Sequence record: MZ234013.1
Length of the DNA stretch: 64,000 nucleotides
Reading direction: 5' to 3' (one strand)
From: Escherichia phage vB_EcoM-101112UKE3-1
Shown: positions 44,992 through 45,775 of the stretch, in pieces
How positions within the stretch are numbered: position 1 is the stretch's first letter
Layout of the letters: each line of letters starts with the position of its first letter
Notes under the pieces: model-generated
Told to the model about the DNA's origin: nothing
Databases searched by the model: none
What the model saw: only the letters and a program-made list of their open reading frames with translations
Made by a program: the position numbers and the translations under genes

Positions 44992-45572
44992 TGATTAAAT
45001 TGGTATTCGCTTATTCTCCAACTAAAACCGTCGAAGGCTTTAATGAATTAGCATTCGGTTTAGGTGATGGTTTACCATGGGGACGAGTTAAAAAGGACCT
45101 CCAGAATTTTAAAACTCGTACCGAAGGTACAATTATGATTATGGGTGCTAAAACGTTCCAGTCATTATCTACATTACTTCCTGGTCGTAGTCATATTGTG
45201 GTGTGTGACCTTGCGCGCGATTATCCTGTAACTAAAGACGGCGATTTAGCACATTTCTATATTACTTGGGAACAGTATATAACTTACATTTCTGGTGGTG
45301 AAATTCAAGTGTCAAGCCCTAATGCACCATTCGAGGCTATGCTTGACCAGAATTCTAAAGTAAGTGTAATTGGCGGACCCGCTCTGTTATATGCTGCATT
45401 ACCTTATGCAGATGAAGTAGTTGTTTCTCGTATTGTTAAAAGGCATCGTGTTAATTCAACTGTTCAATTAGATGCAAGTTTTCTTGATGATATAAGCAAG
45501 CGTGAAATGGTTGAAACGCATTGGTATAAAATAGATGAAGTAACAACCCTTACGGAATCAGTATATAAATGA
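44991..45572 (+). CDS. frd: dihydrofolate reductase, 193 aa
   Basis: Sequence matches T4 Frd. Confidence 0.9.
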
Positions 45573-45775
45573 GCAATAAATTAAAAGTTAAGGATGTTCC
45601 TAATGCTATGGCCCTTTTTATTTGTCGGCAGATGCATCAAGGGCCTATGACACCAAAACAATATCTTAAAGGTGAGCGTTCTTTAGGATTTACTCGCAAA
45701 GCAAAACAAATGGTTAAATTAGGATATAAGCCTAACTTTGCCAAATATCCTTCTACATATTCTTGGATGAACTAA
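45569..45775 (+). CDS. hypothetical basic protein, 68 aa, inserted between frd and td
   Basis: ATG overlaps frd stop (ATGA); stop overlaps td start (TAATG). Confidence 0.5.

Follow-up and report, generated by a model that had tools for sequence, protein, structure and literature searches.

A conserved small basic protein gene in the three-allele frd-td slot of Tequatrovirus

Here, we describe ORF68, a short open reading frame (ORF) that lies between frd and td in Escherichia phage vB_EcoM-101112UKE3-1 (MZ234013.1). We propose, at a rough probability of 0.55, that ORF68 is a bona fide but dispensable accessory gene of T-even phages. It would belong to PHROG 9550, occupy a polymorphic slot, be coupled to its neighbors, act in trans, and be an old resident of its locus that has been exchanged as a patch. 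The gene is already catalogued and, in itself, is an ordinary uncharacterized accessory gene. What goes beyond the ordinary is its setting: T4 carries an atypical allele of a three-way slot, and the ORF68 patch has recently become common to Tequatrovirus and Dhakavirus.

The analyzed stretch of 64,000 nucleotides (hereafter, the window) is a segment of a Tequatrovirus (T4-like) genome. The 801 bp surrounding ORF68 are 100% identical to those of Yersinia phages of the PYps series and of Escherichia phage EC101. ORF68 spans 207 nt, opens with ATG, and encodes 68 amino acids followed by a TAA stop codon (Table 1). The TGA of frd (45570-45572) overlaps the ATG of ORF68 (45569-45571), forming ATGA at 45569-45572, while the TAA of ORF68 (45773-45775) shares one base with the ATG of td (45775-45777), forming TAATG at 45773-45777. 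Coordinates, translation, and coupled-type overlaps at both ends all match the original prediction, which had also correctly stated that frd and td overlap by ATGA in T4; the T4 record (NC_000866) has a bare 4-nt overlap and no ORF between the two genes. In pairwise alignment, the window and T4 differ by an exact 206-bp indel, both borders of which are the direct repeat AATGA. The G+C content of ORF68 (34.8%; 27.5% at third codon positions, GC3) is similar to that of the neighboring genes. Its 7.9-kDa product contains 10 lysines, three arginines, one aspartate, and one glutamate, giving a pI of 10.26, and is indeed as rich in Lys and Arg as had been predicted.

Table 1. Positions of ORF68, its junctions, and its flanking genes in the window.
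Feature	Position	Strand	Basis
frd (dihydrofolate reductase), upstream operon partner	44991..45572	+	ORF listing
Left junction AATGA, left copy of 5-bp direct repeat	45568..45572	+	Sequence; T4 alignment
ORF68	45569..45775	+	ORF listing
GGATG, Shine-Dalgarno-like for td	45765..45769	+	Sequence; 5 nt upstream of td ATG
Right junction AATGA, right copy of direct repeat	45774..45778	+	Sequence; T4 alignment
td 5' end travelling with ORF68	45775..45830	+	Informative sites; alignment; dS
td (thymidylate synthase), downstream operon partner	45775..46955	+	Rfam; spliced product
td exon 1	45775-46323	+	
td group I intron without endonuclease ORF	46324-46643	+	Rfam RF00028, 66.9 bits
td exon 2	46644-46955	+	

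The window Frd shares 97.4% amino acid identity with T4 Frd, and splicing of td yields an intact Td of 286 amino acids. The ORF listing places a TTG start for td at 45763, upstream of the ATG at 45775; we take the ATG as the start because it yields a protein beginning MKQYQ, matching the homologous start in T4. The td intron of the window is just 320 nt long and lacks an I-TevI frame, whereas the T4 intron holds a 738-nt I-TevI gene. Intron content varies among phages with the ORF68 allele: td contains an I-TevI intron in ACG-C40 and EC121, no intron in SH7, and an ORF-less intron in the window.

ORF68 falls squarely within an established protein family. It matches the profile of PHROG 9550, a family of uncharacterized phage proteins, at E = 1.3e-45, with residues 1-68 aligned to profile positions 1-68 of 68. 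Matches to ORF68 occur in 239 phage records (tblastn), and more than 100 GenBank phage records annotate it as a "hypothetical protein". The same protein (97-100% identity), in the same position and with the same overlaps, is present as ACG-C40_0233, fPS-90 g234c, and EC121 ASZ77065. Relative to the copies in Klebsiella (Marfavirus), Enterobacter, and Serratia (Muldoonvirus) phages, dN/dS is 0.10-0.23 (Nei-Gojobori), with dS at least 0.9 or saturated. By these measures of sequence conservation, ORF68 is a genuine protein gene under purifying selection and not a chance ORF.

Searches of very large protein collections return only small relatives. Screening 1.84 billion representative proteins with a profile recovered 10 real clusters (70-96 amino acids; 66-96 across the proteins returned); an 11th match, to a 1402-amino acid repeat protein, was spurious. 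A second, word-indexed search with a broader alignment recovered 40 proteins of 42-108 amino acids among 5.8 billion clusters. Full-length homologs span 66-108 amino acids, and neither collection contained fusions to known domains or longer relatives. A scan of IMG/VR with close homologs as queries gave only nine loci. At every locus examined the frame is intact, barring one IMG/VR fragment with an altered A-run that is probably a homopolymer error. In one Klebsiella phage record, the tblastn match is in two pieces. The metagenomic homolog P0009 has a 5-residue in-frame insertion (RTTPKH-MTPKQ) that resembles a tandem duplication and lies in the loop joining helix 1 to helix 2, the length of which is variable throughout the family.

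ORF68 is unannotated or misnamed in several reference records. It is missing from the annotation of JS98 (EF469154), JS10, SH7, and Paracelsus, and PYPS2T, vB_EcoM_P8, Shinka, and IME339 are among the records that annotate it inconsistently. Inconsistent calls include a 42-amino acid fragment and the names "flagellar biosynthesis protein" and "DUF4858", neither of which is supported by Pfam scans. Literature searches on ORF68 or on td.1, the gene that occupies the same interval in T6, returned nothing relevant.

The frd-td junction of Tequatrovirus exists as three mutually exclusive alleles. The T6-type allele, which carries td.1 (PHROG 1928, 115 amino acids), is found in approximately 363 records. 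The ORF68-type allele is found in approximately 136 records at ≥95% nucleotide identity, Dhakaviruses counted, and the T4-type empty junction in 5 of 57 records from an evenly spaced sample. In T6, the td.1 interval is at 1702-2113 (L016). A promoter-like TTAGCT-N17-TATAAT, similar also to a MotA box combined with a -10 element, lies in the 45-nt spacer that separates td.1 from td.

ORF68 directly precedes td, its stop codon overlapping the td start codon, in every T4-like lineage that carries it: Tequatrovirus, JS98 (Dhakavirus), Klebsiella P545 (Marfavirus), Serratia WSPA (Muldoonvirus), and Enterobacter MY742. Junction alignment shows that the overlap takes the form TGATG in the Klebsiella phage, GTGA in the Enterobacter phage, and TAATG in the Serratia phage. 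Gene order in Marfavirus, Muldoonvirus, and the Enterobacter phage is frd-1928(-1928)-9550-td, with one or two copies of PHROG 1928. Between these non-E. coli lineages and the window, amino acid identity is 60-79% for ORF68, 74-78% for Td, and 39-48% for Frd. The divergence of ORF68 is thus within the range of Td, which fits long co-residence with td in these lineages. We therefore take ORF68 to have long occupied the frd-td slot of enterobacterial T4-like phages. This polarity, with ORF68 ancestral in the slot, refers to the five lineages above; Mosigvirus, Krischvirus, and others gave no tblastn matches.

Since the non-E. coli relatives hold both ORF68 and PHROG 1928, T4 is probably the deletion state. 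Its junction could have been derived from the T6 type by deletion between two copies of TAAATGAAA. The other side of frd shows a comparable difference. In the window, an 81-amino acid ORF containing CGECQRVC (44746-44991) separates frd.1 from frd, and its stop overlaps the start of frd (TAATG); T4 has a gap of just 71 nt there. phiD1 carries the ORF at 99% identity, and an ORF of equal size is found in this position in T6, RB3, FL18, and others. T4 thus seems to have lost sequence to either side of frd, compared with most of its relatives. Thus, the description of ORF68 as "inserted between frd and td" holds relative to T4 only; elsewhere the gene is an old resident, and it is the T4 arrangement that is a rare allele. 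The original prediction had also regarded absence from close relatives with the same flanks as grounds for rejection. Such absence is indeed seen, but it is not a valid test because ORF68 is a dispensable accessory gene.

The ORF68 copy of the window has a different history from its flanks. Compared with JS98, ORF68 is identical at 201 of 204 nt (98.5%; dS 0.05), whereas frd is 78.3% identical (dS 1.09). Within td, dS is 0.25 across nt 1-57, and nt 58-549 are saturated (pS 0.80). The dS of ORF68 between the window phage and JS98 is even lower than that of the flanks between the window phage and T4 (0.15-0.21). We also examined informative sites, defined as positions that separate T4/T6 from JS98. 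Markers are of the Tequatrovirus type in frd up to nt 579 of 582, of the JS98 type at td nt 16-36 (45790-45810), and of the Tequatrovirus type again from td nt 57. These switch points define a shared patch consisting of ORF68 plus the first 36-56 nt of td. The ORF68 copy found in E. coli Tequatroviruses and Dhakaviruses is thus a recently exchanged patch of ~250 bp.

The left breakpoint of this patch is ~6-8 nt from the ATGA, which is tighter than homologous recombination alone predicts. Subsequent recombination may have trimmed it, or a microhomology event may account for it. Neighbor-joining trees of frd and of td nt 58-549 show the three slot alleles intermixed. A second intergeneric mosaic tract, apart from the ORF68 patch, is present in the frd of Shigella phage SH7, where ~200 bp (equivalent to window positions ~45170-45370) are 88-98% identical to JS98 and 57-80% identical to the window phage. 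This separate tract and the intermixed alleles indicate that short-patch recombination between E. coli T-even genera infecting the same cell is common here, and therefore that no special mobility mechanism is needed.

We find no resemblance between ORF68 and proteins of known function. An AlphaFold2 (AF2) model built on a 21-sequence alignment predicts three compact helices (residues 13-24, 29-38, and 43-50; pLDDT 80) and a basic N-terminal tail of lower confidence. Queries with the single protein or the 21-member alignment drew only noise from Pfam, NCBIfam, and PDB sequences at E ≤ 10, consistent with the earlier observation that ORF68 has no obvious enzymatic motif. Structure comparison matched the model to neither a helix-turn-helix (HTH)-like fold nor any other known fold. 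PADLOC assigned none of the 21 members to a family at E ≤ 1; its models cover defense systems, so this is a weak test of counter-defense. A likeness to ribosomal protein bS21, suspected from the pattern KV..P...AL..F.R, was rejected, as hhalign against E. coli S21 gave a probability of 0.1% and Pfam Ribosomal_S21 did not match the family. A family profile search of six-frame ORFs found no paralogs of ORF68 in the window.

Distant homologs of ORF68 (29-47% identity) belong to long arrays of small uncharacterized ORFs, among early genes, in Phapecoctavirus and further contigs of unrelated large phages; one homolog lies downstream of a PIF1-type helicase gene. Neither td nor any shared neighbor family occurs near these homologs, the neighbors being unrelated uncharacterized PHROGs. 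Because they are linked neither to td nor to a constant neighbor, the ORF68 protein is likely to act in trans and alone. That is, ORF68 would encode a basic three-helix product that works in trans, independently of td. The likeliest activity, though still short of probable, is that early or middle in infection this product binds nucleic acid or an acidic factor of host or phage, as an accessory function of the host-takeover or counter-defense type. Binding to such partners is suggested by the strong positive charge of the protein, and by charge only; the small nucleic-acid-binding regulator raised in the original prediction is accordingly a possible reading. Should ORF68 prove to act on the host, the T-even repertoire would gain a further small effector. 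A bolder version, in which ORF68 is a new small-protein fold that serves as a counter-defense or host-takeover factor, and in which a benefit in E. coli drove its recent spread across Tequatrovirus and Dhakavirus in competition with td.1, seems to us unlikely.

The constant position of ORF68 also raises the idea that it specifically serves thymidylate synthase, dihydrofolate reductase, or the dNTP-synthetase complex, as a partner or regulator. Such a protein would be expected to sit where ORF68 does in all five T4-like lineages, directly before td and overlapping at its junctions. However, most Tequatroviruses, T4 and T6 included, run the same pathway without ORF68, and homologs in other phage groups sit in small-ORF arrays beside a helicase gene or other genes, not beside td. 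Furthermore, ORF68 recombines independently of the frd and td alleles within Tequatrovirus. We thus consider a dedicated role in this pathway quite improbable, and continue to favor a dispensable accessory protein that acts independently of its neighbors.

Expression of ORF68 might nonetheless depend on those neighbors. We propose that frd, ORF68, and td would be co-transcribed in one operon, in which ribosomes finishing frd would restart on ORF68 at the ATGA overlap. ORF68 would, in turn, pass them on to td by way of the TAATG overlap and a Shine-Dalgarno sequence, GGATG. Judging from the overlaps, such a coupled-cistron relay from frd through ORF68 to td is likely. The sequence upstream of the ORF68 start is exactly that found before td in T4. 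The GGATG motif, a putative Shine-Dalgarno sequence for td, is formed by codons Trp66-Met67 of ORF68, and TGGATG is invariant at the nucleotide level in the five aligned T4-like lineages. Neither a σ70-like promoter nor an intrinsic terminator is predicted within or abutting 45569-45775. RNA folds of the junctions and of the 5' half of ORF68 are no better than those of shuffled sequence, and the td intron is the sole Rfam match in a search for RNA elements. On the basis of the folds and the Rfam search, we reject an RNA element in place of a gene.

A weak hairpin (-5.9 kcal/mol) can be drawn at 45760-45813, in which GGATG and part of the td start codon pair with td codons 9-12 (GATATCCTGGAA). 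These are JS98-type codons that travel with ORF68. Its stability does not exceed that of shuffled sequence (z = +0.67), and the Klebsiella phage does not keep the pairing partner; the structure is probably a coincidence.

These junction features could suggest that the ORF68 frame matters in cis only, tuning td translation by relaying ribosomes or acting as a spacer, with a peptide that has no function. Both overlaps, the invariant Trp-Met codons that provide GGATG, and a hairpin able to pair this motif with codons of the patch would suit such a role. Yet the amino acid sequence has been kept across saturated synonymous divergence, and homologs with 40-47% identity in Phapecoctavirus and other phages neither adjoin td nor overlap their neighbors. 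T4 and T6, moreover, express td without ORF68, and the hairpin fares no better than chance. A purely cis-acting role is therefore very improbable, and a coupled gene with a trans-acting product remains our preferred reading.

We hold it similarly doubtful that ORF68 is a selfish or driven element, whose patch would protect the frd-td junction from a site-specific nuclease, such as one encoded by td.1, or be mobilized by it. The patch is sharp, has the gene's own borders, and is common to two genera at a dS of 0.05, and three mutually exclusive alleles compete for one site. Nevertheless, a nuclease signature is absent from both ORF68 and td.1, and no co-conversion gradient extends from the I-TevI site, as td nt 57-549 are of the Tequatrovirus type. 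Tracts of this kind are explained by ordinary patchy recombination, as the unrelated short JS98-like patch in SH7 frd illustrates.

Scarcely credible, finally, is the suggestion in the original prediction that ORF68 is what remains, after decay, of a free-standing homing endonuclease (GIY-YIG or HNH) once located between frd and td, for example its C-terminal DNA-binding domain. The td region does host homing elements (I-TevI in T4, T6, ACG-C40, and EC121), and one record labels td.1 a "putative homing endonuclease". However, no nuclease similarity is detectable in td.1, hhalign of the ORF68 family profile against I-TevI gives a probability of 0.2%, none of the 21 family members matches Pfam models (NUMOD, IENR, and HTH included) at E ≤ 10, profile searches find no longer or fused relatives, the window holds no paralog, and strong purifying selection acts along the whole length of ORF68.

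ORF68 alone is of small import, being one of many uncharacterized small accessory genes of T-even phages that are already in databases. The locus is more instructive. It is a clean natural three-allele slot combined with a gene-sized patch exchanged between phage genera, and it could serve as a marker of recombination among co-infecting T-even phages. It also shows that the reference phage T4 has an unusual frd-td junction, so that comparison with T4 only is misleading as to what constitutes an "insertion".

ORF68 shares some characteristics with known systems and departs from each of them. Like the seg, mob, and I-TevI genes of T-even phages, it is an optional gene between conserved genes, with a patchy distribution in the td/nrd region. 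Unlike these genes, it is only 68 amino acids long, lacks similarity to nucleases or to endonuclease DNA-binding domains, and shows no co-conversion gradient. A second comparison is the PeSL-mediated modular shuffling of ORFans in T4-type phages (Arbiol et al. 2010, PMC2839356), which likewise involves a single small nonessential ORF gained, lost, or exchanged among related T4-type phages. ORF68, however, is without a flanking promoter/stem-loop cassette, its borders are coding overlaps in conserved metabolic genes, and its exchange resembles short-patch homologous recombination.

The T6 gene td.1 is, like ORF68, a small accessory ORF in the frd-td interval. The two genes co-occur in T4-like phages of Klebsiella, Enterobacter, and Serratia, whereas they are mutually exclusive in Tequatrovirus. 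They are unrelated in sequence, and td.1 is longer (115 amino acids) and does not overlap its neighbors, being separated from them in Tequatrovirus by spacers of 20 nt on the frd side and 45 nt on the td side. The T4 frd-td junction is itself of the coupled type, with an ATGA and upstream sequence identical to those at the ORF68 start, and thus joins overlapping cistrons in one operon. The window differs from T4 in having an extra interposed cistron, which supplies a new putative Shine-Dalgarno sequence for td.
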